This document shows, one piece after another, positions 11,624 to 55,939 of a stretch of DNA of 64,000 nt. The notes below the pieces were generated by a model. The model was given only the letters and a program-made list of their open reading frames with translations. It had not been told where the DNA came from and searched no databases. Origin of the DNA: Escherichia phage vB_EcoM_ESCO47. Positions within the stretch are counted from its first letter, which is position 1. Each line of letters begins with the position of its first letter. The DNA is taken from the sequence record OM386662.1, one strand, 5' to 3'. Both the position numbers and the translations under genes were made by a program.

Positions 11624-11803
11624 ATGAAAACTGAATTATTTTATGGCGAAAGAAAAAATGGACAAAAATCCTGGAAATTTGTTATGACTGGGGCTCCAAA
11701 CAATCCGACTATGGCTACTTCAATTATTTCAGTAACACGTCCTACTAAGAAAATGATTCGTCAATATAAACGTTTTCATCGAGACTTTTATAACGTTTAC
11801 TAA
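11624..11803 (+). CDS. Small ORF (59 aa)
   Basis: Just below ORF-track cutoff; fills gap before gene 49. Confidence 0.3.
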   Translation: MKTELFYGERKNGQKSWKFVMTGAPNNPTMATSIISVTRPTKKMIRQYKRFHRDFYNVY

Positions 11804-11805
11804 AT

Positions 11806-11837
11806 TATAAATACCCTTATCTATTTAAGGTAAGGGT
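11806..11837 (+). promoter_or_regulatory. Late-promoter-like TATAAATA box plus hairpin covering the gene 49 ribosome-binding site
   Basis: TATAAATA 11806-11813; ACCCTTA/TAAGGGT stem 11813-11837 spans the AAGG/AGGG upstream of ATG 11843. Confidence 0.45.
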
Positions 11838-11842
11838 TTATC

Positions 11843-23938: not shown

Positions 23939-23987
23939 TATTTTTGATATAAAATAAACTTCTTGATTTGAATTGAAAGGAAATAAA

Positions 23988-24674
23988 ATGAAACTGACTA
24001 AAGACACCATCGCTATTCTTAAAAACTTTGCTTCCATTAACTCTGGTGTCATGCTTACTCCAGGTAAGTTTATTATGACTCGGGCTATTAACGGAACCAC
24101 ATATGCTGAAGCAACTATTACTGACGAAATTGATTTTGAAGTTGCTCTTTATGACCTTAACAGTTTTTTAAGTATTCTGAGTCTTGTTTCTGATGATGCA
24201 GAAATTTCTATGAATGAAGACGGTAATATTAAAATCGCCGACACTCGTTCTACTGTTTACTGGCCAGCCGCAGACAAGAGTACAATCGTATTCCCTAACA
24301 AACCAATTCAGTTCCCGGTAGCATCGGTTATCACTGAAATTAAAGCTGAAGACCTTCAGCAATTGCTTCGAGTTTCACGTGGACTCCAGATCGATACAAT
24401 TGCTATCACTAATAAAGATGGTAAAATCGTTGTAAATGGTTATAACAAAGTTGAAGACTCTGGTCTTACTCGTCCTAAGTATTCTTTGACTCTGACTGAT
24501 TATGATGGTTCTAATAACTTCAACTTTGTAATCAATATGGCTAACATGAAAATTCAACCAGGCAATTACAAAGTTATGCTCTGGGGAGCTGGTGATAAAG
24601 TTGCAGCCAAGTTCGAAAGCTCTCAAGTTAGTTATGTTATTGCAATGGAAGCTGATTCCACTCACGATTTCTAA
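23988..24674 (+). CDS. 45: Sliding clamp gp45
   Basis: 228 aa from MKLTKDT; same length as T4 gp45. Confidence 0.85.
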   Translation: MKLTKDTIAILKNFASINSGVMLTPGKFIMTRAINGTTYAEATITDEIDFEVALYDLNSFLSILSLVSDDAEISMNEDGNIKIADTRSTVYWPAADKSTIVFPNKPIQFPVASVITEIKAEDLQQLLRVSRGLQIDTIAITNKDGKIVVNGYNKVEDSGLTRPKYSLTLTDYDGSNNFNFVINMANMKIQPGNYKVMLWGAGDKVAAKFESSQVSYVIAMEADSTHDF

Positions 24675-24741
24675 GCTTTACGTTTAATATGTTATGATTT
24701 GGAGGAGAAATCCTCCACTTTTTGATAATGAGGAAAATTAT

Positions 24742-25704
24742 ATGATTACCATCAATTCCAAAGAACACATTCTAGAACAGAAATATCGTCCTTCTTCCAT
24801 TGACGAATGTATTCTGCCTGCGTATGACCATGAAACATTCAAGTCTTTAGTATCTAAAGGAAAACTTCCTCATATTATTTTGCACTCTCCTTCTCCTGGC
24901 ACAGGTAAAACAACCGTAGCAAAAGCATTATGTAATGATATCAATGCAGAAATGATGTTCGTCAACGGTTCTGATTGTAAGATTGATTTTGTGCGTGGCC
25001 CGTTAACTGCATTCGCTCGTTCAGTCTCAATGGAAGGCAAGCCTAAAGTTATTGTTATTGATGAATTTGACCGTAGTGGCCTCGCCGAATCACAACGTCA
25101 CCTTCGTACGTTTATGGAAGAATTCTCTAGTAACTGCTCTATTGTTATTACTGCTAACAACATCGATGGAATTATTGAACCATTACGTAGTCGTTGTCGA
25201 GTTATCGAATTCGGACGTCCAACCGAAGAAGATAAAATCTCAATGATGAAGAAAATGATTCATCGTATGGTTGAAATCTGTAAGAATGAAAATATCGAAA
25301 TCGCTGATATGAAAGTTGTTGCAGCTCTGGTTAAAAAGAACTTCCCGGACTTTCGTCGTACAATCGGTCAATTAGACCAGTACTCGTCTAAAGGTGTTCT
25401 TGATGCTGGTATTTTGTCTATCGTAACTAATGACCGTGGCACGGTCTCTGATGTTATCGAAGCAATGAAGAACAAAGATATCAAACAGCTTCGTGCATTA
25501 GCTCCAAAATACGCTGCAGATTATTCATGGTTCATCGATAAATTAGTTTCAGAATGTTATGACCAAGTTGCACCTGGTAAAAGTATTATTTCGCTTTATG
25601 AAATCGCAGGCGAAAATAATAAGTTTCATGGATTAGCAAGTAATATTGAATTACATGTTATGTATATGCTTCTTCAACTGACCTGTGAACTGACTTGGAA
25701 ATAA
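24742..25704 (+). CDS. 44: Clamp-loader large subunit gp44
   Basis: 320 aa from MITINSKE; Walker [18 protein letters not shown] motif. Confidence 0.85.
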
Positions 25705-25705
25705 T

Positions 25706-26269
25706 ATGAACTTATTCGATGATGACGTCCGGCTTAACGAGCACCAAATTGCATGGAAGTCTAATGACGCTGATGCGATTCAAAAATGTGCTGATATGTT
25801 TAAAGAAAAACCTGAGAATGAATTCTTTAAAATCATTAATGCTATTAATGAAAAGAAATCTATGTCAATTGCTCAGGTCGACTACTCAAAATTTATGGTT
25901 GAGAACTCATTATCCCAGTTCCCAGAATGTATGCCAGCTGTTTACATGATGAACTTAGTCGGTTCTGAATTAAGTGATGAAGCGCACTTCAACTATATGA
26001 TGGCGGCAATTCCGCGCGGTCGTCGATTCTCTAAATGGGCTAAACTAGTCGAAGACACTTCAGAGTTACTAGTTATCAAACTGTTGATGAAACATTACAC
26101 AATCAACATGAATGATGCTACAGAGTATAAGCGGCTCCTTGAAAAAAATAACAAGTTGCCAATAGTCCTTAAAGAACTGAAGGCCATGGTCACTGATGAA
26201 TTTCTCAAAGAAGTTACCAAAAACGTGAAAGAACAAAAACAATTTAAAAAAATAGCATTGGAATGGTAA
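25706..26269 (+). CDS. 62: Clamp-loader small subunit gp62
   Basis: 187 aa, same as T4 gp62; immediately downstream of 44. Confidence 0.8.
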
Positions 26270-26271
26270 AA

Positions 26272-26640
26272 ATGATTGAAATTAAATTGAAGAACCCTGA
26301 AGATTTTCTGAAAGTCAAAGAGACTTTGACCCGTATGGGCATCGCTAATAACAAGGATAAAGTCCTTTACCAGTCTTGTCATATCCTCCAAAAGCAAGGT
26401 AAGTATTATATCGTCCACTTTAAAGAAATGTTGCGTATGGATGGACGTCAGGTTGATATTGACGGTGAAGACTATCAGCGACGTGATTCGATTGCCCAGT
26501 TGCTTGAAGACTGGGGATTGATTGTTATTGAAGACTCTGCTCGTGAAGATCTATTTAGCCTGACTAATAACTTCCGAGTTATCTCTTTTAAACAGAAAGA
26601 TGACTGGACTTTGAAAGCAAAATATACAATTGGTAATTAA
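26272..26640 (+). CDS. regA: Translational repressor RegA
   Basis: 122 aa from MIEIKLKNPEDFLKVKETLTRMGIANNKD, closely matching T4 RegA as I recall it. Confidence 0.85.
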   Translation: MIEIKLKNPEDFLKVKETLTRMGIANNKDKVLYQSCHILQKQGKYYIVHFKEMLRMDGRQVDIDGEDYQRRDSIAQLLEDWGLIVIEDSAREDLFSLTNNFRVISFKQKDDWTLKAKYTIGN

Positions 26641-26645
26641 AGCAA

Positions 26646-26664
26646 TGGGACTTCGGTCCCATTT
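26646..26664 (+). terminator. Rho-independent terminator with TTCG tetraloop
   Basis: TGGGAC-TTCG-GTCCCA then TTT. Confidence 0.55.
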
Positions 26665-26722
26665 GGAGTATAATGTCTATAACAACAAACAAAGACAATA
26701 ACTCGTCTATAAAGGAAAAATA

Positions 26723-29434
26723 ATGCAAGAATTTTATTTGACAGTAGAACAGATTGGTGACTCAATTTTCGAACGTTATATCGATTCTAACGGTCGTGAA
26801 CGTGTTCGTGAAGTAGAGTATAAGCCATCATTGTTTGCACATTGTCCCGAAAGTCAGGCTACAAAATATTTTGATATCTATGGTAAACCATGTACTCGTA
26901 AGTTATTCGCTAATATGCGTGACGCATCTCAGTGGATTAAACGCATGGAAGATATCGGTCTTGAAGCATTAGGTATGGACGATTTTAAATTGTCTTATAT
27001 CAGTGATACGTATCCGGTTGATATCAAATACGACCATACTAAAATTCGTGTAGCGAACTTTGACATCGAAGTAACATCTCCTGACGGGTTCCCTGAGCCG
27101 TCACAAGCAAAACATCCTATTGATGCTATCACTCATTATGACTCAATTGATGACAGGTTTTATGTATTTGACCTTTTGAATTCTCCATATGGTAATGTAG
27201 AAGAATGGTCTATCGAAATTGCGGCTAAGCTTCAAGAACAAGGCGGTGATGAAGTTCCATCCGAAATTATCGACAAAATTGTTTATATGCCGTTTGATAA
27301 TGAAAAAGAATTATTGATGGAATATCTCAATTTCTGGCAACAGAAAACTCCTGTCATTTTAACCGGATGGAACGTTGAGACATTTGATATTCCATATGTG
27401 TATAACAGAATCAAGAATATTTTTGGTGAATCCACAGCAAAACGGTTGTCACCACATCGCAAGACTCGTGTTAAAGTTATTGAAAACATGTATGGTTCAC
27501 GAGAAATCATTACATTGTTTGGTATCTCTGTTCTTGATTATATCGACCTTTACAAAAAGTTCTCTTTCACGAACCAACCGTCATATTCTCTGGACTATGT
27601 TTCAGAATTTGAATTGAATGTTGGTAAACTGAAATACGACGGTCCTATTTCTAAACTTCGCGAAAGTAATCATCAACGATATATAAGCTATAACATCATC
27701 GACGTATATCGTGTATTGCAAATTGATGCTAAACGCCAGTTCATTAACTTGAGCTTGGACATGGGTTATTATGCTAAAATTCAGATTCAATCTGTGTTCA
27801 GTCCAATTAAAACTTGGGACGCTATTATTTTTAATAGCCTTAAAGAACAAAACAAGGTGATTCCACAAGGTCGTTCGCATCCAGTTCAACCTTACCCGGG
27901 TGCTTTTGTTAAGGAACCTATTCCAAATCGATACAAATATGTGATGAGCTTCGACCTCACATCTCTGTATCCAAGCATCATTCGCCAAGTGAATATTAGC
28001 CCAGAAACAATAGCAGGAACGTTTAAAGTAGCTCCATTACATGATTATATTAACGCTGTTGCTGAACGTCCTTCTGATGTGTACAGTTGTTCTCCTAACG
28101 GCATGATGTATTATAAAGACCGTGACGGTGTTGTTCCAACTGAAATCACTAAAGTCTTTAATCAACGTAAAGAACATAAAGGTTATATGCTTGCGGCTCA
28201 ACGTAATGGTGAAATAATTAAAGAGGCCTTACATAATCCTAATCTTTCTGTTGATGAACCATTAGATGTTGATTATCGTTTTGACTTCACTGACGAGATT
28301 AAAGAAAAGATTAAAAAGTTGTCTGCTAAATCTCTTAATGAAATGTTGTTTAGAGCTCAACGTACTGAAGTTGCAGGTATGACTGCACAAATTAACCGTA
28401 AATTGCTCATCAACTCGCTTTATGGTGCACTTGGAAACGTTTGGTTCCGTTATTACGATTTGCGTAATGCAACTGCAATCACAACATTCGGTCAAATGGC
28501 TTTACAATGGATTGAACGTAAAGTTAATGAATATCTTAACGAAGTTTGTGGTACACAAGGCGAAGCTTTCGTTCTATATGGTGATACAGACTCCATTTAC
28601 GTATCTGTAGATAAAATTATTGATAAGGTTGGTGAATCTAAATTCCGCGATACTAACCATTGGGTAGACTTCTTAGATAAGTTCGCTCGTGAACGTATGG
28701 AACCTGCTATTGATAGAGGTTTCCGTGAAATGTGCGAATACATGAATAATAAGCAACATTTGATGTTCATGGACCGAGAAGCTATCGCTGGGCCTCCGCT
28801 TGGTTCTAAAGGTATTGGTGGATTCTGGACTGGTAAGAAACGTTATGCATTAAACGTGTGGGATATGGAAGGAACCAGATACGCTGAACCTAAGCTTAAA
28901 ATCATGGGTCTCGAAACACAGAAATCTTCGACTCCTAAAGCAGTACAGAAAGCTCTTAAGGAATGTATTCGTCGTATGCTTCAGGAAGGCGAAGAATCAT
29001 TACAAGAATATTTTAAAGAGTTTGAAAAAGAGTTCCGTCAGCTGGATTATATTAGCATCTCATCAGTGTCATCGGCAAATAACATTGCTAAATATGATGT
29101 CGGTGGATTCCCAGGTCCTAAATGTCCATTCCATATTCGTGGAATTCTGACATATAACCGAGCTATCAAAGGTAATATTGATGCTCCACAAGTTGTAGAA
29201 GGTGAAAAGGTATACGTTCTGCCTTTACGTGATGGAAACCCGTTCGGTGATAAATGTATCGCATGGCCATCTGGTACAGAAATCACTGATTTGATTAAAG
29301 ACGACGTGCTTCGTTGGATGGACTACACTGTTCTCCTTGAGAAGACATTTATTAACCCACTTGAAGGATTCACGTCAGCAGCGAAACTCGATTATGAGAA
29401 GAAAGCATCTCTGTTCGATATGTTCGATTTTTGA
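26723..29434 (+). CDS. 43: DNA polymerase gp43 (family B)
   Basis: 903 aa; exonuclease FDIE and polymerase YGDTDS motifs; near-identical to my recollection of RB69 gp43. Confidence 0.95.
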   Translation: MQEFYLTVEQIGDSIFERYIDSNGRERVREVEYKPSLFAHCPESQATKYFDIYGKPCTRKLFANMRDASQWIKRMEDIGLEALGMDDFKLSYISDTYPVDIKYDHTKIRVANFDIEVTSPDGFPEPSQAKHPIDAITHYDSIDDRFYVFDLLNSPYGNVEEWSIEIAAKLQEQGGDEVPSEIIDKIVYMPFDNEKELLMEYLNFWQQKTPVILTGWNVETFDIPYVYNRIKNIFGESTAKRLSPHRKTRVKVIENMYGSREIITLFGISVLDYIDLYKKFSFTNQPSYSLDYVSEFELNVGKLKYDGPISKLRESNHQRYISYNIIDVYRVLQIDAKRQFINLSLDMGYYAKIQIQSVFSPIKTWDAIIFNSLKEQNKVIPQGRSHPVQPYPGAFVKEPIPNRYKYVMSFDLTSLYPSIIRQVNISPETIAGTFKVAPLHDYINAVAERPSDVYSCSPNGMMYYKDRDGVVPTEITKVFNQRKEHKGYMLAAQRNGEIIKEALHNPNLSVDEPLDVDYRFDFTDEIKEKIKKLSAKSLNEMLFRAQRTEVAGMTAQINRKLLINSLYGALGNVWFRYYDLRNATAITTFGQMALQWIERKVNEYLNEVCGTQGEAFVLYGDTDSIYVSVDKIIDKVGESKFRDTNHWVDFLDKFARERMEPAIDRGFREMCEYMNNKQHLMFMDREAIAGPPLGSKGIGGFWTGKKRYALNVWDMEGTRYAEPKLKIMGLETQKSSTPKAVQKALKECIRRMLQEGEESLQEYFKEFEKEFRQLDYISISSVSSANNIAKYDVGGFPGPKCPFHIRGILTYNRAIKGNIDAPQVVEGEKVYVLPLRDGNPFGDKCIAWPSGTEITDLIKDDVLRWMDYTVLLEKTFINPLEGFTSAAKLDYEKKASLFDMFDF

Positions 29435-29475
29435 TATAATGCCATGGACGGCAAACTAACCTAAATGAGAGAAAT

Positions 29476-30108
29476 ATGAAAACCACTCCTATTACTATCG
29501 CAATTGACGCAATCGTAAAGCAAGCTTCATCTCTGGCTACTATGGCTAAAGTAATTAGTCAAAATTCAGCTCGATACAATGCCATTCTTGAAACCTTGCG
29601 ACGTCCTGGTCTGAGTAATTATGAAAGTCGTGTAATTATTACCGGTGTCGGTAAAAATGCTAATATCGCAACTAAAGCTTCTGAAACATTTGCTTCACTC
29701 GGTATCCCGAGTATGTACTTGAACACTGGGCATTATTCTCACGGTGATGCAGGATTCATTGCGCCTAATGATGTGTTGATTCATATTAGTCGTTCTGGTA
29801 AAACTGAAGAAATGATTGGCGTGGCTAAGCATCTTAAAATGATTCGTCCGAACGTCAAACAGATTCTGTTGCATTGTAACCCGGACATTCCACAAGAAAA
29901 TGAAGCCCTTTTTGATTACTCTTTCTGTACAGGCATCGCAGTAGAGGTTGATGAGAATTCTCTGGCTCCGACTATGTCAACTACATTGTTGTTAGCGCTT
30001 ATCGATACGTTTGCTATCAACCTTTCATCTGAACGTGGATTTACCTCTAATGACTTCCTTAAGTTCCACCCTGGTGGTGCACTAGGTGCCATGTTACGAG
30101 GCGAATAA
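29476..30108 (+). CDS. SIS-domain sugar-phosphate isomerase, KdsD/GutQ-like (putative arabinose-5-phosphate isomerase)
   Basis: VIITGVGKNANIATKASETFASLG...HGDAGFI...ISRSGKTEE...LAPT.STT...HPGGALG parallels the KdsD SIS domain; no CBS domains. Confidence 0.65.
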   Translation: MKTTPITIAIDAIVKQASSLATMAKVISQNSARYNAILETLRRPGLSNYESRVIITGVGKNANIATKASETFASLGIPSMYLNTGHYSHGDAGFIAPNDVLIHISRSGKTEEMIGVAKHLKMIRPNVKQILLHCNPDIPQENEALFDYSFCTGIAVEVDENSLAPTMSTTLLLALIDTFAINLSSERGFTSNDFLKFHPGGALGAMLRGE

Positions 30109-30251
30109 TGAAAGCAATAGCAATAGGACTTTTACTATTGATGCTTGTTATGACTATCTACTGGAGCTTAACTGCTCCAGTAATGGTTCCGACTCTTATA
30201 ATCGGATGGATTATGATTGGACTACAAGCAAAGTATGAATGCTTTAACTAG
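30108..30251 (+). CDS. Small membrane ORF (47 aa)
   Basis: TAATG coupling to SIS gene; two hydrophobic segments; below ORF-track cutoff. Confidence 0.3.
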   Translation: MKAIAIGLLLLMLVMTIYWSLTAPVMVPTLIIGWIMIGLQAKYECFN

Positions 30252-30292
30252 AATAGTGTACAATACTCCTACTTACCAATGAGGACCACAAC

Positions 30293-31978
30293 ATGAAAAA
30301 AGCTGTTATTCTTGGTGCTGGACTGGCAACTCGTTTGTATCCAATAACGCATCATATTCCTAAGGTGCTTGTTAACTATAAACAAGACACTATTCTGAGC
30401 AATTTGTATACAATTTATTCTGATCTTGGCGCAGACGAAATTATTGTAGTAGTTCATTCAAAATTTGCTGAAACTGTTCGAGCTTATTGTGAGCAAGAAG
30501 GGTTCAATGTGACTATTCGTACAGTTGATGAAGCGTATGGATCTGCTTATGCTCTTGCTAAATTACACAAAGATTTAGACGGCCATAATGTAATTGTTAA
30601 CTGGTGTGATATTATTCCTGATTTTGGTTCATGGTCATGGAATGTTAACGCAATCTATGTTAAGGGCGACGAATGTCGATATAATTTCGACGGTGAAAAT
30701 ATCACTAACGTAGGTTCAACAGGTGGTAATGTTGTAGGAATTTATCAGTTCAAAGACTGGGAATTCTATATGGGTTCTACCGATGAGGAAATTCATGAAT
30801 ACTGCAAAGGACGTGATTTCGTAGAATTCCTTTACGGCAGCGCATTCAATAAATCAGAGCTTATGAATCTAATTGATTTAGGTGATATGCCTAAACTTGA
30901 AAAAGCTCATGAAGTTCGTGAACTTAATCGTAGTTTTAATGCAGTTGAAATTGGTGAAGAAACTGTAACTAAATTCGCATTAACCGAACAGGGTCGAGCT
31001 CTTCAGAAAGATGAGATTTCATGGTATCTTAAAGTGAAATCAGATTCAGTTCCTCAGTTAGTTTCTGTTAATGAAAATAACTTTGAAATGGAACGCATTA
31101 AAGGTAGGCCGGCATTTGAATATATTAAATCCAAATCAAGTCTTGCTCGTCCACAAATTGTTGATGCAATTTTAGATGCACTGAAATTCAGCACAGACAC
31201 TTATTTTGTAAGTCCTGAAACTGTTCGTCGTGATTTCACTAAAGAATTCTATACTAAAGTTATTGATCGTTGTGAAAGCATTCAACCATTGATTGATTCA
31301 TTTGGTAAAATCACACATGTGAACTACACCAAGATTGGACGTCTGAAGCCAATGCTGAAACAAGCTTTAGAACACCTTATTCGTTATCATAACCGTTCTC
31401 AGGGACAGTACTCTGTTATTCATGGTGACCCGAACTTCAGTAATACTATGATTACTGATAACGGCGAAGTCAAGTTTATCGACCCTCGTGGATATTTTGG
31501 CGAAACCAAGATTTACGGCCCGAAATTGTATGATGAAGCTAAAGTGCTTTATGCTGTTTCAGGTTATGATGAATTCAATGCTAATCCGACCTGGGGGCAG
31601 TTTACTATTGATGAAACAACTTGTAATGTGTCTATTAACATCAATCCATTAGTTTACAAATATGGAAAGATGAGTTCGTTTAACGAGTATCATCATTTGG
31701 CAGTGGCAATTATCTGGATTGCATTAGGTGGTTATTTCAAGAATAATCCACTTAAAGCGGTAGCCGCATATTATAAAGGTATGGAACTTCTGACTAAGCA
31801 ATTACGTAACATGGGCCGTGTACTTCAGGACGGCTCTATTAGTTATGACGTAGCAGAACCTGTAACGGCTACACTGATTACAAAAAATCCTGGTAAATGG
31901 GTACTAACTGATAAAGAAACTGGTGTTTCCTATCGTCCAATCGGTGGCGATATCACTCATCAATGGGAACGAATCTAA
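30293..31978 (+). CDS. Bifunctional sugar-1-phosphate nucleotidyltransferase (N-terminal) / kinase-like (C-terminal) protein
   Basis: N-terminal AVILGAGLATRLYPIT...PKVLV nucleotidyltransferase signature; C-terminal HGDPNFSNTMI...FIDPRGYF resembles the APH/choline-kinase catalytic loop. Confidence 0.6.
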   Translation: MKKAVILGAGLATRLYPITHHIPKVLVNYKQDTILSNLYTIYSDLGADEIIVVVHSKFAETVRAYCEQEGFNVTIRTVDEAYGSAYALAKLHKDLDGHNVIVNWCDIIPDFGSWSWNVNAIYVKGDECRYNFDGENITNVGSTGGNVVGIYQFKDWEFYMGSTDEEIHEYCKGRDFVEFLYGSAFNKSELMNLIDLGDMPKLEKAHEVRELNRSFNAVEIGEETVTKFALTEQGRALQKDEISWYLKVKSDSVPQLVSVNENNFEMERIKGRPAFEYIKSKSSLARPQIVDAILDALKFSTDTYFVSPETVRRDFTKEFYTKVIDRCESIQPLIDSFGKITHVNYTKIGRLKPMLKQALEHLIRYHNRSQGQYSVIHGDPNFSNTMITDNGEVKFIDPRGYFGETKIYGPKLYDEAKVLYAVSGYDEFNANPTWGQFTIDETTCNVSININPLVYKYGKMSSFNEYHHLAVAIIWIALGGYFKNNPLKAVAAYYKGMELLTKQLRNMGRVLQDGSISYDVAEPVTATLITKNPGKWVLTDKETGVSYRPIGGDITHQWERI

Positions 31979-32364
31979 TGCACCGTGTAGAAAACATGCT
32001 TAATCTTTGTTTTGATGTCGATGATTGCATCACGGAATGGAATAACACTCGTGATTACGTGAACTTCAAGCCAGACAGCGAAATGGTGTCTGCTATTAAT
32101 GCCTTGTATGATGCAGGGCATACCATAACGCTTTACACTGCTCGCGGTATGAAGTCGGTAGGTCCTGGTCGTATAGCAATTGACATTCTCCCAAGTCTGA
32201 TTCAGAACTTGGAAAACATTGGTTTGAAGTACCATAATTTGCTAACACATAAACCAGTATATGATTGGATTATCGACGACAAAGCTATGCGTCCTGACGA
32301 ATTCAAAGCTCTTATGAATAAAGGCGAATTCGAAACATTTAAATCATATAAACCTAATCTATAA
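31978..32364 (+). CDS. Small HAD-like phosphatase (putative)
   Basis: LCFDVDDCIT (motif I-like), HTITLYTARG (motif II), YDWIIDDKA (motif IV-like); TAATG coupling. Confidence 0.45.
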   Translation: MHRVENMLNLCFDVDDCITEWNNTRDYVNFKPDSEMVSAINALYDAGHTITLYTARGMKSVGPGRIAIDILPSLIQNLENIGLKYHNLLTHKPVYDWIIDDKAMRPDEFKALMNKGEFETFKSYKPNL

Positions 32365-32421
32365 TAATTTAAGTAAGACCTGCAAAAACCATCGCGTCAA
32401 TTAACGTGAGATGCAAAAAAA

Positions 32422-33582
32422 ATGAATACTTTTAAAATCGGAACGAATTTTGATTTAGCTCTTCTTGATAAAATCGTAGAGCTCAATAAAACTTATCCTA
32501 ATAGCTTAATAAACGAAGTATACGGCTCTACAAGAGAAATGGCTTTTGTAGCAGCCAGACCTGATTTTAGGCTTCCTGACGTTGACAAAAAGATGTTAGA
32601 AGATTACGTTAAACGTTGTAACGAATTAGGTATTTGCTTTAACTATACACTCAACACGATAAATCCTGGTTCAAAAAGAGAACTAGTTGAGTGGAAGAAG
32701 AAAGCTATTCAGGATTATGTTCAGTATCTTTGGTCAATAGGCGTATGGCGTATTACTATCGCTAACCCTGTTGTTATGGAAATTGTTCGTGAAGTCAATA
32801 AAGACATTGAGATTGAAGTTTCAACAATTCTACATGTCGATGCTGTAACTCAAATCAAATACTTGCATGACCAATATAATATTAAAAAGGTCTGTTGCGG
32901 AATTCATAAGAACCGTTCAGTTTCTTTCCTGAAGCGTGCAGCAGAGTTTTGCAATAAGAACAATATAATATTTGAAGTTCTTGTAAATGAGTTCTGTTCT
33001 AATGCTGGTAAAGGGTATACAACACATTGTAGTTATCGTGACTCTTGCTATATTTTCCATAGTACTGATGTTACAGTTGATGATGCTAAATCCTTAAACG
33101 GATATCCAATGCAACACTGCATTAAAGCTCGTGATACAGACCCATTTAACTGGTTGAGAACTCGTTTTGTTCGTCCTCAAGATTTGAAACTTTATAATGA
33201 TATTGGTATCACTCAATTCAAAGTTTCAGGACGTACAGGTAGCACAGACTACATTTTGAAAGTTCTTGAAGCATACGCTTCTGAAAAGTTTGAAGGTAAT
33301 TTGTTAGAACTGTGGAAGCCTTTAGAGACTATTTTCACTCTTGAAAATGAAACTGAGTTTTCACATACAGTAAATATTGAAACCTCTTTGTTAGATGGCT
33401 TTTTAGAAAAAAGGTGGTTCAGACATCCAGATTTCGATTGTGCTAATGAAATCTGCGGGACGACGTGTACATATTGTGAAAGATATTATAAACGTCAATT
33501 ATCTAAAAACGGGTTATCAGAAAATTCTATATCTATTATTGATATAACTAACTCTGATGACGCTTTGAGGTACCCGGAATGA
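32422..33582 (+). CDS. Peptidase-U32-family protein (PrtC/RlhA/TrhP/UbiU-like putative Fe-S enzyme)
   Basis: Architecture and blocks ITIANPVVMEIVRE, IEIEVST, IFEVLVNEFCSNAGKGYTTHCSYRDSC parallel the U32 core as I recall it. Confidence 0.5.
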   Translation: MNTFKIGTNFDLALLDKIVELNKTYPNSLINEVYGSTREMAFVAARPDFRLPDVDKKMLEDYVKRCNELGICFNYTLNTINPGSKRELVEWKKKAIQDYVQYLWSIGVWRITIANPVVMEIVREVNKDIEIEVSTILHVDAVTQIKYLHDQYNIKKVCCGIHKNRSVSFLKRAAEFCNKNNIIFEVLVNEFCSNAGKGYTTHCSYRDSCYIFHSTDVTVDDAKSLNGYPMQHCIKARDTDPFNWLRTRFVRPQDLKLYNDIGITQFKVSGRTGSTDYILKVLEAYASEKFEGNLLELWKPLETIFTLENETEFSHTVNIETSLLDGFLEKRWFRHPDFDCANEICGTTCTYCERYYKRQLSKNGLSENSISIIDITNSDDALRYPE

Positions 33583-33818
33583 TTTCTAGAAAAACTTTTA
33601 ACCACCAACTTAATGAAGAGATTTTGACTATGAAAATTAACAGCATCGAACAAATTCTTAAAAAGGCCCTTATGGGCCTGTTTGAAACTAAAGCGGCTAA
33701 AGTGATTAAAGAACCTGTTCAACTAGAATATTACGCTGATGCATTTCTTCATAGTGTTCTTGGAAGTATCGATGCTGAAGCTTTACGTTATATCAACATC
33801 GCTAAGAAATTCAAATAA
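33579..33818 (+). CDS. Hypothetical protein
   Basis: 79-aa ORF (alternative start ATG 33630). Confidence 0.35.
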   Translation: MISRKTFNHQLNEEILTMKINSIEQILKKALMGLFETKAAKVIKEPVQLEYYADAFLHSVLGSIDAEALRYINIAKKFK

Positions 33819-33860
33819 GCTTTATGAATTGAGTATATAATAAATTGTATTGAGGTAAAC

Positions 33861-34577
33861 ATGGGAAAACATAACACAATGAAATATATCAAAGCCGCAG
33901 ATTTTCAAGCCGCATTTAAAGCAGTCAATCGTGAAATTTTAGAAAACCCGGAATTCGTAACTGATTCTCGTATTGGTCGTTGTAATGAAATTGGGTCTAT
34001 GACAGTAGTTGTTGACACTCCATCATCATTCAAAATGACCGACCCACGTATTAACCGCATCTCTTATGAATATGCCGAAGACTTCTGGAAATTTATGATT
34101 TCTGGTGGTACTGATGCAGAAGAAGCATTTAAGGCATATCCTAACGTTGCTAAATTTATTTCTAAACCAAAATCAGATGCTTTGCCTGCGAACTTCAACA
34201 CTTTCTATGGTCCTCGCATTGCGGCCCAATTACCAACTCTTCTAAAAGAACTTAAAGAGAAGCCTAACTCTCGAAGAGTTGTGTTCCAAATTCTAGAAAG
34301 TTCTGATCAGGCTTTGCTTGATTCGGACGAAACACTTGAATATCCATGTACTGACTCGGTGACTTATTATATTCGCGATGGTAAGCTTTATACCCACTGT
34401 CATATGCGTTCTCAGAACTGTGCTGTTGTTATGCAGTTGGATTTTTATCTCCAAGGAAAATTACTTCATTATATCGCTAACGAATGTGGTGTAGAAGTTG
34501 GTGATTATACTCATACCATGGTAAGTGCCCATGTGTTTGAACGTGATTTTGATTATGTTAAAGGATTCCTTGACTAA
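33861..34577 (+). CDS. 42: dCMP hydroxymethylase gp42 (thymidylate-synthase family)
   Basis: 238 aa; EYPCTDSVTYYIRDGKLY...HMRSQN thymidylate-synthase-like catalytic Cys region; position as in T4. Confidence 0.8.
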   Translation: MGKHNTMKYIKAADFQAAFKAVNREILENPEFVTDSRIGRCNEIGSMTVVVDTPSSFKMTDPRINRISYEYAEDFWKFMISGGTDAEEAFKAYPNVAKFISKPKSDALPANFNTFYGPRIAAQLPTLLKELKEKPNSRRVVFQILESSDQALLDSDETLEYPCTDSVTYYIRDGKLYTHCHMRSQNCAVVMQLDFYLQGKLLHYIANECGVEVGDYTHTMVSAHVFERDFDYVKGFLD

Positions 34578-35476
34578 TGGCTATTTTCCGCGTACCTATC
34601 TTGAGTATGCGGTCTTATGAAACCGGACAGTATGCTATCCTTAAGGATGGCAACTTCCAACTTCATTTGCACCGTGCTAATCCAGGTGATGTGATTACAT
34701 ATCCACGTAATGCATCTGATATTAAAGAATGTGAACGTCTTTTCCCAGAATTTAAGTTTGTTCCATTATGGTATAAAGATAACGCGTATAACACTCGTAA
34801 ATATTTCTGGTCTGAAAATGAATTTGTGGTTGATTCATTAATTGCTTATTATGATTGTGATTTTCTAATCACAGATATCACTGGATATGATGGTGTTTTT
34901 GATGTAGAATTCAATTTCAATATCACTGCAGACCCTAATAAACCACGTTTTTATATTGACGAATTCTTAAAAACCGATATGTTGTCGGTTAATCGTTCAC
35001 TTCAAACTACTGTGTTGAATGAACGTCAAAAAGAAGTGCTGGTTAACGCAGGTGCAGATGGTAATAAGATTATCGTAACGCAGAAAGTTATACGTCCTTC
35101 CATCATGCAGCGTCTTGTAGGTGATTTGGCTCCTATTCATCTAGATGGTATTTTTCATCCATTTCGAATTAGTGACCCGTGCTATCGTTTTGAACAAGTG
35201 GTTGAATGTGCAATTCAATTAGGCCAACCACTTTATATAACCGATCCAAATAATAGCTTCGACAGAAATAAGTATCCTGAAGAAGCGCTGATTCGAATTT
35301 TTAAACCAACTAAAACTGAGTACTATCAAATTCTTAAAGGACGTCCGAAGATTCAATATTTCGAAAATCCTGAAGAAGTATTCCATCCAGGTCTTGGTGA
35401 GTTCATCTACTTTAACGCTTTAATTTCTTCGCCGTATAATATACCTAAATATGAAGATGTCGTAATCGAGGAATAA
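34577..35476 (+). CDS. Unknown 299-aa protein in the T4 beta-glucosyltransferase position (candidate DNA glycosyltransferase)
   Basis: ATGGC overlap with gene 42 stop; no resemblance to T4 beta-gt as I recall it; function inferred from position only. Confidence 0.3.
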   Translation: MAIFRVPILSMRSYETGQYAILKDGNFQLHLHRANPGDVITYPRNASDIKECERLFPEFKFVPLWYKDNAYNTRKYFWSENEFVVDSLIAYYDCDFLITDITGYDGVFDVEFNFNITADPNKPRFYIDEFLKTDMLSVNRSLQTTVLNERQKEVLVNAGADGNKIIVTQKVIRPSIMQRLVGDLAPIHLDGIFHPFRISDPCYRFEQVVECAIQLGQPLYITDPNNSFDRNKYPEEALIRIFKPTKTEYYQILKGRPKIQYFENPEEVFHPGLGEFIYFNALISSPYNIPKYEDVVIEE

Positions 35477-35477
35477 A

Positions 35478-36026
35478 ATGGCTAAAATTATTTTAGTAGA
35501 TGGCCCAGATAATGCTGGTAAAACAACTTTCATTAATGACATAATGGAAATTAGTGAAAGATATGTAAAGATTGATTTCCCTAAACGAACTGTAGATGGA
35601 CGCTTTGATGTTAAGTCTCGAAATGAAGTAGGCTGTTTCGAAACAATGCTAAATTATTTAGACCCTACTAAGATTTATCTGTTAGACCGTGGATATATTA
35701 GTAACTGGGTTTACGGACGTATTCGACAAGATGCGGACTCGGTTCTTGACGTTTATGAACAGGATTATGTTCGTCTTTGCCAAAACCATGATGTGTTCAC
35801 AATTATTTTAACACGTAACGAAATGACTGAAAGTTTTGAAGACGACCTTATCACGTTGTCTGCTCATGGCTTTAATTTTGTTATCTCACTTTTTGAAGAG
35901 TTTGCTGCTCATAATGGAATACAATCTTATCAGTTATTAAACCATGATGGTGCTAACAAAGTTATAGGATTTAATGTAAGTGAACGCAATGCATTGATTG
36001 CAGAAATTATCAAATGGGCTCGTTAA
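35478..36026 (+). CDS. P-loop nucleotide kinase, thymidylate-kinase-like
   Basis: Walker A ILVDGPDNAGKTT and LDRGYISNWVYG resembling the TMK DRY motif. Confidence 0.5.
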   Translation: MAKIILVDGPDNAGKTTFINDIMEISERYVKIDFPKRTVDGRFDVKSRNEVGCFETMLNYLDPTKIYLLDRGYISNWVYGRIRQDADSVLDVYEQDYVRLCQNHDVFTIILTRNEMTESFEDDLITLSAHGFNFVISLFEEFAAHNGIQSYQLLNHDGANKVIGFNVSERNALIAEIIKWAR

Positions 36027-36047
36027 GAGCCTATTTAAAGTTTAAAA

Positions 36048-36072
36048 TGCTGTATAACCTGTAGTATATAAT
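36048..36072 (+). promoter_or_regulatory. MotA-box middle promoter upstream of uvsX
   Basis: TGCTGTA then 19 nt to TATAAT. Confidence 0.45.
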
Positions 36073-36126
36073 CATCCTATCTTTTAAACGTGAGTAAAAT
36101 ATAATGACGCCTATGGAAAAAATACA

Positions 36127-37299
36127 ATGTCTGATTTAAAATCTCGTCTGATTAAAGCTTCTACTTCCAAAATGACCGCTGACTTGACTAAGTCTAAGCT
36201 CTTTAATAATCGTGATGAAGTCCCTACTCGTATTCCTATGTTGAATATTGCATTAGGTGGTGCATTGAATGCTGGTTTGCAGTCTGGTTTGACTATTTTT
36301 GCTGCCCCGTCTAAACACTTTAAAACATTGTTTGGGTTGACAATGGTTGCCGCATATATGAAGAAATACCCAGATGCGATCTGTTTGTTCTATGATTCAG
36401 AATTTGGTGCTTCAGAATCTTATTTCCGTTCAATGGGTGTTGATTTGGACCGCGTAGTTCACACTCCAATCCAATCAGTAGAACAACTTAAAGTTGATAT
36501 GACTAATCAGCTTGATGCAATCGAACGCGGTGAAAAGGTTATCATCTTTATTGACTCAATCGGTAACACAGCGTCTAAGAAAGAAACTGAAGATGCATTG
36601 AACGAAAAAGTTGTTGGTGATATGTCTCGTGCTAAGGCACTTAAATCTCTGTTCCGCATTGTGACCCCGTATCTGACTATTAAAGATATTCCGTGTGTTG
36701 CAATTAACCATACAGCAATGGAAATCGGCGGATTGTATCCTAAAGAGATTATGGGCGGCGGTACAGGTATTCTTTATTCTGCCAACACGGTATTTTTTAT
36801 CTCTAAACGTCAGGTTAAAGAAGGTACAGAATTGGCCGGTTATGACTTCACGTTGAAAGCAGAAAAATCTCGCACAGTTAAAGAGAAATCTACATTCCCG
36901 ATCACTGTTAATTTTGATGGTGGTATCGACCCATTCAGTGGCTTGTTAGAAATGGCAACTGAAATTGGTTTTGTAGTTAAGCCTAAAGCAGGTTGGTATG
37001 CTCGTGAATTCCTTGACGAAGAAACCGGTGAAATGGTTCGTGAAGAAAAATCCTGGCGAGCTAAAGCCACAGATTGCGTAGAATTCTGGGGACCTTTGTT
37101 TAAACACAAACCTTTCCGAGATGCAATTGAAACTAAATATAAACTAGGTGCTATCTCTTCTATTAAAGAAGTTGACGACGCAGTTAACGAATTAATCAAT
37201 GCTAAAACGTCTTCGAAAATTCCGGTAAAAGCTTCTGGTGCTCCATCTGCAGCTGATATCGAAAATGATTTAGACGATATGGAAGATTTTGATGAATAA
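36127..37299 (+). CDS. uvsX: RecA-like recombinase UvsX
   Basis: 390 aa; RecA-fold Walker A region; acidic C-terminus. Confidence 0.9.
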   Translation: MSDLKSRLIKASTSKMTADLTKSKLFNNRDEVPTRIPMLNIALGGALNAGLQSGLTIFAAPSKHFKTLFGLTMVAAYMKKYPDAICLFYDSEFGASESYFRSMGVDLDRVVHTPIQSVEQLKVDMTNQLDAIERGEKVIIFIDSIGNTASKKETEDALNEKVVGDMSRAKALKSLFRIVTPYLTIKDIPCVAINHTAMEIGGLYPKEIMGGGTGILYSANTVFFISKRQVKEGTELAGYDFTLKAEKSRTVKEKSTFPITVNFDGGIDPFSGLLEMATEIGFVVKPKAGWYAREFLDEETGEMVREEKSWRAKATDCVEFWGPLFKHKPFRDAIETKYKLGAISSIKEVDDAVNELINAKTSSKIPVKASGAPSAADIENDLDDMEDFDE

Positions 37300-43658: not shown

Positions 43659-44180
43659 ATGGCGCACTTTAACGAATGTTCACAACTGATTGCTGGTGTT
43701 GATAAAGCTGAAGAAGCTTATTTTAATGCTCTTATTCACGAAGATAAAGACCCGTTGCAGGTAATGCTTGATATGCAGAAATCTTTACAGGTTCGTCTGG
43801 CAAATGACAAGCCTGAACATAACAAACATCCTGATGAATTGGCCACTGCTGGTGAAGTCGTTGATTGGCTACGCAATCAGAAAGATTATATTGACGATGA
43901 ATTCCGTGAACTTCTGACTTCTCTTGGTGGTATGAGCAATGGTGAAAAAGCCGCCAGCAGTGTATGGAAGCCGTGGAAGGCGCAACATGCTGAATATCGA
44001 AATCGTCGTATCGATGAACTGTCTCCTGAAGACCAGCTTGAAATCAAATTTGAAATGATTGATATTCTCCATTTCGTTCTGAATATGTTCCAAGGTCTTG
44101 GTCTTACTGCTGAAGAAATCTTTAAATTGTACTACCTGAAGAACAAACATAATTTTGAACGCCAGGATAATGGATATTAA
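43659..44180 (+). CDS. 56: dCTPase/dUTPase gp56 (MazG-like)
   Basis: 173 aa from MAHFNEC; position between 61 and soc as in T4. Confidence 0.75.
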   Translation: MAHFNECSQLIAGVDKAEEAYFNALIHEDKDPLQVMLDMQKSLQVRLANDKPEHNKHPDELATAGEVVDWLRNQKDYIDDEFRELLTSLGGMSNGEKAASSVWKPWKAQHAEYRNRRIDELSPEDQLEIKFEMIDILHFVLNMFQGLGLTAEEIFKLYYLKNKHNFERQDNGY

Positions 44181-54838: not shown

Positions 54839-55939
54839 ATGAAAGTTATGTTTATCCCATCTCGTGCAGTCCCATTTAATCCTGACCGTGTACAAGGTGG
54901 TCTTGAAGCGGTACATTTAAATGTGTTGAAATATTTAGTTTCTATCGGTGCCGATATTGATTATATCGGTTTTGATAACGACACATTTGGTGATTGGAAA
55001 GTTACACACCATCCTGTTGGCCATCTTACTAAATTCAGTCTAGGTATGAGTTATACTATGGCTCGTAAGATTGTTGAACTGGCCGGCATCCATGAATACG
55101 ATTTTGTTGTTACTATGGAACCGACTAAACTAACCGTTCAGGCAATTAAAGACGCAGGTCTCTCTAAAGTTCATAAGAATTTTATGGCAACACCATTTGA
55201 ACCTGTATCTCGTGGCATTGTTCAAATTTGGGACCAGACTATTCAAATTCATAAGAACGGTGGTAAGAGTTATGCTCCTACTAAAGCCTTCCGTGAATTT
55301 GAACGCAAATATTGTCATATGACTTCAGGTCTGACAGACAAAATTGATTATGATTATTGGCGAGCAAATCCGTTGTTTGAAGCCGAAGATTATCCGGTTA
55401 TTTGTTTGAATGAGAAACCTGAAGTTCTTCCAGCAACTGATCTGATTATTAGTGCACAACGTTATGACACTAAAATGCGTCGTACTGATGTTGCTCTTGA
55501 AGCGATTAAAGCGCTCGGCGAAAATGGTGCAGGATACTGTCCTAGTAAATGGGCACCACCGGCTAAGTATCCAGTAACTATTGATGCTCCACATAGTGAA
55601 ATCATGGAACGCCTTAAAACAGCTAAAGCACTTATCAATACGTGTCCTGACACCGGCACGGTAGAGAATAGTTCTATTGAAGCTATTTCTAAAGGTGTAC
55701 CTGTGATTCAGCTAGTCTTTAAAGATTATCCACATGCTACGTTTGAATATGACCCTGACACGGTACGTGTAGAGATTGATGCTTCCACCCCTAAGAAAGA
55801 AGTAGTTATGCTTTACACAAAAGCTGTATTAGAATTCACTGACACATACGAATCACGAGTCAAACGTGCAGAATATGTATGGCAAAAGTATAATCGGGAT
55901 GCAGTTGTAGCGATGTGGGATAAAATCTTCACAGCGTAA
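54839..55939 (+). CDS. GT-B (GT4-like) glycosyltransferase, candidate DNA hmC glycosyl/arabinosyl-transferase
   Basis: N-terminal MKVMFIPSR...GGLEAVHLNVLKYL and C-terminal ENSSIEAISKGVPVI resemble GT4 motifs; lies between 39 and rIIA. Confidence 0.55.
   Translation: MKVMFIPSRAVPFNPDRVQGGLEAVHLNVLKYLVSIGADIDYIGFDNDTFGDWKVTHHPVGHLTKFSLGMSYTMARKIVELAGIHEYDFVVTMEPTKLTVQAIKDAGLSKVHKNFMATPFEPVSRGIVQIWDQTIQIHKNGGKSYAPTKAFREFERKYCHMTSGLTDKIDYDYWRANPLFEAEDYPVICLNEKPEVLPATDLIISAQRYDTKMRRTDVALEAIKALGENGAGYCPSKWAPPAKYPVTIDAPHSEIMERLKTAKALINTCPDTGTVENSSIEAISKGVPVIQLVFKDYPHATFEYDPDTVRVEIDASTPKKEVVMLYTKAVLEFTDTYESRVKRAEYVWQKYNRDAVVAMWDKIFTA

Follow-up and report, generated by a model that had tools for sequence, protein, structure and literature searches.

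The interval 29476-33582 of a 64,000-nucleotide (nt) window from Escherichia phage vB_EcoM_ESCO47 (OM386662.1) holds four main genes, encoding a KdsD-like isomerase, a nucleotidyltransferase/kinase fusion, a HAD phosphatase and a U32-family protein. We are fairly confident that this interval is the donor-sugar half of an RB69-type gene cluster for arabinosyl-5-hydroxycytosine hypermodification of DNA, the core pathway of which is published. The cassette as such is already known: it corresponds to the cluster of phages RB69 and HY126, described in its chemistry and principal enzymes by papers of 2018 to 2026. For the U32 protein we propose, with moderate confidence and on the basis of genomic context and family chemistry, a role as a prephenate-dependent, O2-independent pyrimidine C5 hydroxylase that would make 5-hydroxy-dCMP. 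The comparative evidence makes this unexplained gene the subject of a sharply testable hypothesis.

Coordinates refer to the whole window, and the open reading frames (ORFs) of the cluster are all located on the + strand. The parts of the predicted pathway are:

29476..30108, +, SIS-only KdsD-like arabinose-5-phosphate isomerase (API; ribulose-5-phosphate to arabinose-5-phosphate), 210 amino acids (aa), counterpart of RB69 gp55 (Pfam, NCBIfam, phrog_5670)
30293..31978, +, nucleotidyltransferase/APH-ChoK-type kinase fusion, 561 aa, counterpart of HY126 AfhE and RB69 gp52:53 (profiles, position, architecture)
31978..32364, +, small HAD phosphatase, 128 aa, counterpart of HY126 AfhF and RB69 gp51 (NCBIfam, phrog_1238)
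32422..33582, +, U32-family TIM-barrel protein, iron-sulfur-type, 386 aa, counterpart of RB69 gp50 (Pfam PF01136)
33861..34577, +, thymidylate synthase (TS) homolog, predicted flavin/O2-dependent 5-hydroxy-dCMP synthase, counterpart of RB69 gp48 (Pfam, identity, motif)
34577..35476, +, DNA arabinosyltransferase 1 (GT1), 299 aa, counterpart of RB69 gp46:47, predicted to add the first arabinose onto 5-hydroxycytosine (phrog_3891; assignment in Table 1 of PMC13326640)
35478..36026, +, Tmk-like nucleotide kinase, counterpart of RB69 gp45 (phrog_761 thymidylate kinase, 2.3e-43)
43659..44180, +, gp56 dCTPase, outside the interval (RB69 annotation, tblastn)
54839..55939, +, second DNA arabinosyltransferase (GT2), counterpart of RB69 ORF003c, outside the interval (assignment in PMC6024577 and PMC13326640)

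In RB69 DNA, analysed by tandem mass spectrometry and nuclear magnetic resonance, mono- and di-arabinosylated 5-hydroxycytosine with a C5 ether linkage takes the place of all cytosine, and RB69 gp48 was shown by experiment to be a flavin-binding 5-hydroxy-dCMP synthase that takes its oxygen from 18O2 (PMC13326640). Arabinosyl-5-hydroxy-dC in virion DNA has been demonstrated for RB69 and NP (PMC13326640, PMC13390438). By analogy, the SIS isomerase of the window would divert ribulose-5-phosphate to arabinose-5-phosphate (Ara5P), the kinase domain of the fusion would phosphorylate C1 to give arabinofuranose-1,5-bisphosphate (Ara-1,5-P2), the HAD phosphatase would take the 5-phosphate off the bisphosphate, and the nucleotidyltransferase domain would then form UDP-arabinofuranose (UDP-Araf). 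Separately, the TS homolog would hydroxylate C5 of dCMP with flavin and O2, kinases would lift 5-hydroxy-dCMP to the triphosphate while gp56 would destroy dCTP, and the polymerase would incorporate 5-hydroxy-dC, to which GT1 and GT2 would add one or two arabinoses on the DNA.

The U32 protein would act in parallel to the flavin/O2 enzyme, hydroxylating C5 of dCMP with prephenate as oxygen donor and Fe-S clusters for electron transfer, and would permit 5-hydroxy-dCMP synthesis during oxygen-free growth of the facultatively anaerobic host. Phages with such hosts would possess two non-homologous hydroxylases for one step, the TS homolog working with flavin and O2 and the U32 protein working with Fe-S clusters and prephenate. 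In many uncultivated phages of strict anaerobes, the U32 protein would be the only hydroxylase, accompanied by GT1-type glycosyltransferases and by a phage-encoded chorismate mutase or 3-deoxy-D-arabino-heptulosonate 7-phosphate (DAHP) synthase.

The U32 protein and the genes that accompany it

Hidden Markov models derived from the cluster proteins were run on 53 loci, with public metagenomes and IMG/VR as sources. Genes for the supply of prephenate accompany the U32 gene in four different arrangements. Three isolates, Serratia phage LC53, Enterobacter phage Entb_45 and Yersinia phage TG1, carry an AroQ chorismate mutase gene in the gap that separates U32 from the TS homolog (Pfam CM_2 with 41-45 bits for the LC53 and Entb_45 proteins, cut-off 27). 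Stand-alone chorismate mutase was found by tblastn in 54 isolate genomes, always in this cluster, and it is present in 13 of the 15 T4-like IMG/VR loci. Elsewhere, a Bacillus-type DAHP synthase gene lies directly 3' of U32 (L011 and L037; the DAHP_synth_1 gene of L011 reaches 237 bits as DAHP synthase vs 63 as Kdo8P synthase). A DAHP synthase-chorismate mutase fusion is found just upstream of U32 in L048, L049, L051 and L052, with both domains above the cut-offs and, in L051, a HAD-like gene in between, and in L067 a stand-alone chorismate mutase gene is located beside Tmk and GT1. These latter arrangements belong to unrelated phage lineages with a PolIII-alpha-type polymerase.

Chorismate mutase and DAHP synthase both raise the flux to prephenate. 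This compound is the oxygen donor for the UbiU/V-dependent anaerobic hydroxylation of ubiquinone (PMC10990095), and it is required for RlhA-dependent 5-hydroxycytidine in rRNA (PMC5727448) and for TrhP-dependent 5-hydroxyuridine in tRNA (PMC6599085). With about 62,000 cytosines per genome, one burst amounts to millions of hydroxylations, which would explain why many relatives carry prephenate-supply genes of their own. The Mosigvirus of the window has presumably lost chorismate mutase, keeping a decaying ORF of 79 aa in its place, and having lost it would draw on host prephenate (host PheA and TyrA).

In all 15 T4-like loci, the TS homolog, GT1, the Tmk-like kinase, the nucleotidyltransferase/kinase fusion and the HAD phosphatase are present. 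Among the 35 distant loci (U32 identity 40-58%), a GT1 homolog occurs in 21, often directly abutting U32 and in most of these cases together with a Tmk-like kinase. Isomerase and nucleotidyltransferase/kinase are found in 10 of the distant loci, as one block with U32, and a TS homolog was detected in 1 only, a canonical ThyA (244 bits), the metagenomic contigs being seen over 12-17 kb. Counted over 37 distant viral or metagenomic loci, GT1 neighbours of U32 again number 21, and a GT1 homolog also stands beside U32 in 3 of the 8 loci from prokaryotic genomes. The uncultivated 74-kb contig L051 encodes on one strand GT1, SIS, nucleotidyltransferase/kinase, Tmk-like kinase, DAHP synthase-chorismate mutase, HAD and U32, and no TS homolog. 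By its gene content, L051 is predicted to cover every function of the window cluster, and U32 is its sole candidate for the hydroxylase.

The U32 protein is recognised by Pfam Peptidase_U32 (PF01136) with 42.4 bits (cut-off 22.4). The AlphaFold2 model (pLDDT 91, pTM 0.90) has as its top match in the Protein Data Bank (PDB) the U32 protein Mk0906 (5d88, E 3.7e-7), to our knowledge the sole solved U32 structure; a phmmer search against PDB sequences gave no match, and 5d88 was reached by fold search alone. Identity to known U32 enzymes is 15-22%, and the best NCBIfam match is UbiU at an E-value of 5e-4 only. Profile comparison by hhalign gave a probability of 78% with RlhA (E 1.8e-5, 203 columns), and only weak values with TrhP (11%) and UbiU (5%). 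In the RlhA alignment, E190, C203 and C209 of the phage protein are aligned with E161, C169 and C176 (THC-SYRDSCYIFH vs ALCVAYSGQCYISH). These residues of RlhA, like E162, C170 and C177 of TrhP, are essential (PMC5727448, PMC6599085), and RlhA additionally requires C-terminal Cys residues (PMC5727448). An alignment by MAFFT with UbiU, UbiV, TrhP and RlhA gave a misleading register of the Cys motif, and the register from hhalign with RlhA is better supported.

Across 32 homologs (down to 46% identity), E190, C203, C209, C158, C177, C192, H213, C233, C340, C345, C349 and C352 are invariant; nine Cys and one His are counted as invariant in this set, and the last four Cys residues form a C-terminal CX4CX3CX2C motif. 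RlhA (653 aa) and TrhP (453 aa) are extended at the C-terminus, and the phage protein has no such extension. Among the cluster proteins, U32 is the best conserved across T4-like genera, with a median identity of 83.9% (TS homolog 80.6%, the rest 60-72%) and a ratio of nonsynonymous to synonymous substitution rates (dN/dS) of 0.009-0.04.

Some of the distant loci show further associations. A radical-SAM/SPASM protein is encoded within a few kb of U32, the Tmk-like kinase and, where present, GT1 on PolIII-alpha-type contigs (L008 1-1454, L019 4980-6011, L021 4972-6000, L022 1-1839, L009 12160-13185); in L008 and L022 this gene is followed by one for an unannotated protein of about 400 aa. Locus L009, from a bacterium with dockerin-bearing enzymes, carries two U32 paralogs (8001-9098 and 13227-14360) which are 22% identical to each other and flank genes for NT5C, a PnuC-type transporter, a deoxynucleoside kinase, an AlaX-like protein, the radical-SAM/SPASM protein and a nucleoside deoxyribosyltransferase. 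This gene set may represent a nucleoside-level hydroxylation or salvage system.

Alternative roles of the U32 protein and the oxygen question

Several points weigh against the proposed hydroxylase. The role is proposed from genomic context and family chemistry, and the literature searched contains no biochemical or genetic test of it; in vitro reconstitution of a direct hydroxylase activity has yet to be achieved for any member of the U32 family (PMC10990095). The four-Cys spacing of the 4Fe-4S clusters in UbiU and UbiV is absent, only the first two Cys of the motif being aligned. Since the third and fourth canonical Cys are unmatched, binding of an Fe-S cluster by the phage protein is plausible only and unproven, with H213, C233, C340, C345, C349 and C352 as alternative invariant ligand candidates. 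No chorismate mutase is encoded in the window, where only 42 bp separate the 79-aa ORF from the TS homolog. On the metagenomic contigs, TS-type hydroxylases could be located beyond the stretches seen. The E. coli Dhakavirus VR5 has no U32, and E. coli Dhakaviruses cope without it.

In PMC13326640, RB69 gp50 is labelled 'sugar or heterocycle reductase'. Searches on U32 combined with arabinose or hypermodification, and on chorismate mutase combined with hydroxycytosine, yielded no paper tying U32 to phage DNA and no published role for the protein; the HY126 work (He et al. 2026) and Mahler et al. 2025 were not covered by them and may assign or exclude one. Neither chorismate nor prephenate nor TrhP is mentioned in the text of PMC13326640, the Thanatos paper mentions neither peptidase nor chorismate, and a phage Tn-seq preprint holds no essentiality data on LC53 or Bas46.

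The closest alternative keeps the prephenate-dependent chemistry and changes the substrate: the U32 protein might hydroxylate cytosines after their incorporation into DNA, repairing unmodified C post-replicatively, or another base such as dUMP. RlhA and TrhP work on polynucleotides, TrhP making 5-hydroxyuridine, and a dCMP deaminase gene adjoins U32 in L008, L012 and L020. We nevertheless consider such a substrate unlikely, although none of the opposing arguments is decisive. The phage protein is without the C-terminal extensions of RlhA and TrhP, its steady companion, the Tmk-like kinase, suggests a mononucleotide, and the gp56 dCTPase should leave little unmodified C entering DNA.

A function in sugar metabolism, as a reductase, epimerase or mutase tailoring the arabinose donor, would fit the position of U32 directly 3' of three sugar genes in the window and its occurrence in one block with SIS and nucleotidyltransferase/kinase genes in 10 distant loci. 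It would also fit the TIM-barrel fold, which is common among sugar enzymes, the reductase label of gp50 (Table 1 of PMC13326640) and the entry 'putative enzyme involved in UDP-arabinose biosynthesis' in the BASEL phage records. However, phages exist with the same sugar genes and arabinosylated DNA and without U32. Acinetobacter phage DLP2 has SIS, nucleotidyltransferase/kinase, HAD, TS, GT1 and Tmk in the same order, with the HAD stop abutting the TS start, and its relative DLP3, whose cluster likewise lacks U32, makes tri-arabinosylated 5-hydroxycytosine (PMC13326640). In the part of the HY126 work relayed by PMC13326640, AfhE and AfhF are reported to be sufficient for the conversion of Ara5P to UDP-Ara.

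Conversely, U32 homologs (44-58% identity) are found beside other sugar systems, namely a TAGT-like transferase with a UDP-galactopyranose mutase (GLF-type; L013) and RmlC (L067), or beside nucleotide-metabolism genes alone (dCMP deaminase, Tmk, UDG, NT5C, dNK). No known U32 member acts on sugars, and the link to chorismate mutase and DAHP synthase would be left unexplained. A sugar-tailoring role therefore seems improbable to us. Because arabinose-gene phages without U32 exist and U32 occurs with other or no sugar genes, we infer that the protein stands outside sugar synthesis and is part of a hydroxylase-kinase-glycosyltransferase module. In the uncultivated phage L013, a single block (5495-13179) comprises genes for the Tmk-like kinase, a GT1-like protein, U32, the TAGT-like transferase, dUTPase/DCD, a DNA polymerase and the UDP-galactopyranose mutase, a content that suggests a galactofuranosylated 5-hydroxypyrimidine whose synthesis involves no TS-type hydroxylase.

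An action on the host, either tRNA or rRNA hydroxylation that tunes translation or proteolysis as the family name (peptidase/collagenase) implies, is very improbable. The characterised E. coli paralogs do modify RNA, but E. coli already has TrhP and RlhA, the phage protein has no RNA-binding extension, and its gene is embedded in, and translationally coupled to, a DNA-modification operon and co-occurs with DNA glycosyltransferase and nucleotide kinase genes across unrelated phage lineages.

The proposed prephenate-dependent hydroxylation of dCMP bears on the oxygen supply of the phage. As gp56 removes dCTP, replication depends on the modified nucleotide, and since the known hydroxylase needs O2 we infer that without another route there would be no replication in the anoxic gut. 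U32 was found in 221 isolate-phage records, all at least 80% identical, and where the host could be read from the name it belongs to Enterobacterales or Shewanella. No U32 occurs in the records of Acinetobacter and Rhizobium phages that carry the TS homolog (at least 57 and 22, respectively); this host contrast is phylogenetically non-independent and may reflect few events of gain or loss. In prokaryotes the U32 subfamily was detected in 8 of 100,044 species genomes (one genome per species), belonging to Erysipelotrichales, a metagenome-assembled genome (MAG) of Bacillota, Lachnospiraceae, two Romboutsia, a BRC1 groundwater MAG, Tannerella and Phocaeicola faecalis, which we take to be anaerobe lineages. 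One metagenomic homolog is located on a contig encoding dockerin-bearing glycoside hydrolases.

If the proposed role is true, U32 explains the oxygen-free replication of gut phages that destroy dCTP while their known hydroxylase needs O2. Hydroxylation with prephenate as donor would then extend from RNA and quinones to DNA precursors, with the first U32-family enzyme acting on such precursors, and a small soluble enzyme with a simple substrate would be a useful case for the in vitro reconstitution of a U32 hydroxylase. The phage-borne chorismate mutase and DAHP synthase would gain a function, as shikimate-pathway genes serving DNA modification. The combination of U32, GT1 and Tmk-like kinase could be used as a marker set for glycosylated 5-hydroxypyrimidine DNA in anaerobic viromes, where it would be widespread. 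In phage therapy, U32-bearing Mosigviruses may perform differently in the anoxic gut from Dhakaviruses, which lack the gene.

Acceptor base, sugar donor and organisation of the locus

An earlier note on this DNA, made from the sequence alone, had listed the four genes and their families and proposed that the cassette makes a nucleotide-activated pentose for the modification of cytosine in DNA. Four main ORFs on the + strand are indeed present at the coordinates given there, profile searches confirmed all four family assignments, and the general proposal agrees with the published RB69/HY126 system. The acceptor and the order of the steps have to be corrected. The note had named 5-hydroxymethylcytosine (hmC) as acceptor and the neighbouring 'gene 42' as dCMP hydroxymethylase, a label that many GenBank records also give to the TS homolog. 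This protein (Pfam Thymidylat_synt, 57 bits) is 99.2% identical to the 5-hydroxy-dCMP synthase RB69 gp48. Its active-site strand reads MRSQNCAVVMQLD in the window vs MRSNDVVFGFRND in T4 gp42 (MRSQN vs MRSND). At the position of ThyA D169, where the T4-type enzyme has Asp, the window protein has Asn, while the dCMP-specifying Asp at the position of ThyA N177 is retained; the ThyA residue numbers follow the motif register, as the MAFFT alignment itself is off by two residues. This change from Asp to Asn is a signature of 5-hydroxy-dCMP synthases (PMC13326640).

The report of arabinosyl-hmC in RB69 which the note mentioned does exist: Thomas et al. found arabinose in RB69 DNA in 2018 and assigned it in this way (PMC6024577). 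That assignment has been called erroneous by a separate group (PMC13390438), and the base has since been corrected to arabinosyl-5-hydroxycytosine with ether-linked arabinose (PMC13326640, PMC13390438). The 2018 study also described an eight-gene module without T4 homologs between the polymerase and UvsX and named ORF055c and ORF53_52c as candidates for UDP-arabinose synthesis (PMC6024577).

Regarding the donor, the note had the phosphatase releasing free pentose for the kinase. The HY126 route, as cited in the text of PMC13326640, has the kinase first, from Ara5P to Ara-1,5-P2 (AfhE kinase), then to Ara-1-P (AfhF) and finally to UDP-Araf (AfhE pyrophosphorylase). The labels in Table 1 of the same paper differ from its text ('dephosphorylates Araf5p to Ara', 'phosphorylates Ara to Araf1p') and match the order of the note. 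An NDP-pentose made through free arabinose (isomerase, phosphatase, kinase, nucleotidyltransferase) and transferred onto hmC from a gene-42 dCMP hydroxymethylase, for which the 2018 report, these table labels and the GenBank names speak, deserves next to no credence, being contradicted by the ether-linked base in RB69, the oxygen that gp48 takes from 18O2, the criticism of the hmC assignment, the Asp-to-Asn signature in the window and, as summarised in PMC13326640, an HY126 kinase that acts on Ara5P and a phosphatase that acts on the 1,5-bisphosphate.

The arabinosyl-5-hydroxycytosine pathway has its UDP-arabinofuranose set (KdsD-like isomerase, AfhE-type fusion and AfhF-type HAD protein) complete in the window, 97-99% identical to HY126/RB69. 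The isomerase is matched by Pfam SIS (41.9 bits) and by the NCBIfam models KpsF/GutQ (E 1.9e-32) and KdsD (E 6e-31), in both cases well under the equivalog cut-offs (113 vs 204 bits and 108 vs 505 bits). Since the match spans only residues 47-202 of the 328 of KdsD, the protein is a SIS domain without the CBS pair. With a phrog_5670 match of 7.7e-116, 98.6% identity to RB69p055 and a dN/dS of 0.03-0.05, it is by its profile matches a truncated, separate phage lineage (phrog_5670) predicted to act like API. A Kdo or capsule moron consisting of KdsD and a transferase was ruled out, as no KdsA or KdsB is encoded in the window cluster.

In the fusion protein, an NTP_transferase domain (residues 3-99, 39 bits, with NCBIfam matches to sugar-1-phosphate nucleotidylyltransferases) is followed by a region with weak matches to kinases of the fructosamine-kinase/EcKL type (residues 308-409); a HGDPNFSN catalytic loop is readable in the sequence. 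It is 97% identical to the 562-aa protein of HY126 and 99% to RB69 ORF053 and ORF052. By analogy to the activities reported for AfhE (PMC13326640), its roles would be the conversion of Ara5P to Ara-1,5-P2 and, later, of Ara-1-P and UTP to UDP-Araf.

The HAD protein has a readable DVDD motif, matches the EcbF/BcbF capsule phosphatase model of NCBIfam (E 2.5e-13) and phrog_1238, and is 97-98% identical to the RB69 and HY126 copies. Like its counterpart described in PMC13326640, it would take the 5-phosphate off Ara-1,5-P2. The earlier note was right on the existence of this gene but started it at 31963, as the longest ORF does (133 aa), which falls inside the upstream gene. RB69 and HY126 annotate 31978, and the true start is probably this ATG, which overlaps the upstream TAA (TAATG).

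Downstream of the TS homolog, GT1 is 98-100% identical to RB69 ORF047 and ORF046 (tblastn 34577-35473) and 99.3% to the HY126 copy. The Tmk-like kinase, 94.5% identical to RB69p045, whose product is listed as nucleotide kinase in PMC13326640, probably phosphorylates the modified dNMP. It is the least conserved gene of the cluster (median 60%), and its position varies: in Mosigvirus it follows GT1, and in the Klebsiella, Proteus and Dhaka lineages it precedes either U32 or TS (L018, L024, L028, L035). The dCTPase is 96.5% identical to RB69p028 (tblastn 43659-44177) and GT2 97.5% to RB69p003 over 366 aa (tblastn 54839-55936).

Three further features of the region are:

26723..29434, +, gp43 family-B DNA polymerase, 903 aa, left boundary, context only
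30108..30251, +, predicted two-helix membrane ORF of 47 aa between the isomerase and the fusion gene (phrog_3610, 1.2e-26)
33579..33818, +, ORF of 79 aa (phrog_8601), ATGA overlap with the U32 stop (translational coupling)

The phage is a Mosigvirus, RB69-like, with about 97% DNA identity to RB69, as the earlier note had supposed. Over the region, DNA identity is 96.8% to RB69 positions 23974-30673 and 96.6-97.0% to more than 150 Mosigvirus genomes, and the cluster proteins are 94-100% identical to their RB69 and HY126 counterparts (tblastn/pairwise comparison). Every cluster gene has a dN/dS of 0.009-0.14 against RB69 and HY126, indicating strong purifying selection, and the same ORFs occur in more than 150 phage records; the cluster ORFs are thus real genes and not chance. 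They are tightly packed with stop/start overlaps (TAATG at 31976, ATGA at 33579). The ORFs of 561 aa and 299 aa are intact in the window, while the RB69 reference (NC_004928) splits them into 052/053 and 046/047, in line with published corrections of RB69 sequencing errors (PMC6024577, PMC13326640); the artefacts are frameshifts at 24597-25497 (GT1, ORF046/047) and 28094-29780 (fusion enzyme, ORF052/053).

The composition profile gave no signal of a foreign island, with a GC content of 0.33-0.42 throughout. A scan for sigma-70 promoters and terminators over 29300-36200 found sites no more frequently than in shuffled sequence and is uninformative for a T4-type phage. TATAAT-type boxes are located at 29433-29445, 33833-33845 and 36065-36078, within the three longest stretches between genes, which precede the isomerase, the TS homolog and uvsX. 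The boxes suggest at least two transcription units, with TS, GT1 and Tmk apart from the sugar and U32 genes.

Two small ORFs of the interval, of 47 and 79 aa, were omitted from the otherwise correct gene list of the earlier note. The 47-aa ORF is 95.7% identical to the HY126 copy and is also annotated in LC53 and TG1; this predicted two-helix membrane peptide is thus kept in Mosigvirus, Winklervirus (LC53) and Tegunavirus (TG1) within an operon for soluble nucleotide-sugar enzymes. The 79-aa ORF occupies the slot that chorismate mutase has in most related phages. It is almost restricted to Mosigvirus, contains no Cys and is shortened to 47-58 aa in many database clusters. A degenerate AroQ chorismate mutase was considered and rejected, as no Pfam match was obtained even at E 10, hhalign gave a probability of 0.1% and both genes occur next to each other in Yersinia phage TG1. 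In the chorismate mutase of LC53 (114 aa), the N-terminus (RRINHTMNELV) resembles that of the 79-aa ORF. Together with the shortened copies, this likeness suggests a history of deletion or fusion, with repeated deletions around a conserved, translationally coupled start. In Dhakavirus VR5 (L018, 4854-9589), imm is kept beside gene 43, and a shorter ORF at the position of the isomerase is unmatched by tblastn.

Comparison with known systems

The window has the same genes in the same order as the clusters of RB69, HY126 (Afh genes), Bas46/Bas47, NP, LC53 and DLP3, with all parts present and without material differences. It differs from LC53, TG1 and Entb_45 by having no chorismate mutase, and from DLP2 and DLP3 by the presence of U32.

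With the hmC glucosylation of T4 the cluster shares the slot between gene 43 and uvsX and the general logic, in which a TS-family enzyme modifies dCMP, a dCTPase removes dCTP and sugars are added after replication. The T4 gene order in this slot is 43, imm.1, imm, 42, beta-gt, segA, uvsX, and T4 has, as the earlier note stated, only imm.1 and imm between genes 43 and 42. The base carries C5-CH2OH in T4 and C5-OH in the RB69 type, made with folate and water in the former and with flavin and O2 in the latter (PMC13326640). T4 uses UDP-glucose of the host, whereas the donor in the window is predicted to be made by the phage, and the glycosyltransferases differ from the alpha- and beta-glucosyltransferases of T4.

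The donor route follows the logic of the ADP-heptose pathway (GmhA, HldE, GmhB) and of the N-acetylmuramic acid (MurNAc) pair AmgK/MurU, that is isomerase, anomeric kinase, removal of the distal phosphate and nucleotidyl transfer, with kinase and transferase fused. In contrast to the ADP-heptose pathway, the predicted substrate is a pentose, and the product would go onto DNA and not into lipopolysaccharide or cell wall. The fusion of the window joins an RmlA/MurU-type transferase to an APH/ChoK-type kinase; HldE joins a PfkB-type kinase to a cytidylyltransferase fold. Structure searches match the RB69-type transferase domain to MurU, and the HAD protein resembles GmhB-type and capsule phosphatases (PMC13326640). 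The isomerase shares the SIS catalytic domain with KdsD and GutQ but, at 210 aa, lacks their two CBS domains and would feed DNA arabinosylation and not Kdo synthesis.

The U32 protein shares its fold and the Glu/Cys/Cys triad with RlhA (ho5C2501 of 23S rRNA), TrhP (ho5U34 of tRNA) and UbiU/UbiV. It forms a distinct subfamily without RNA-binding or partner domains, and the proposed deoxynucleotide substrate would be unprecedented for the family. The occurrence of a U32 protein and a putative O2-dependent TS homolog in one genome resembles the pairs TrhO/TrhP for tRNA and UbiIHF/UbiUV for ubiquinone.

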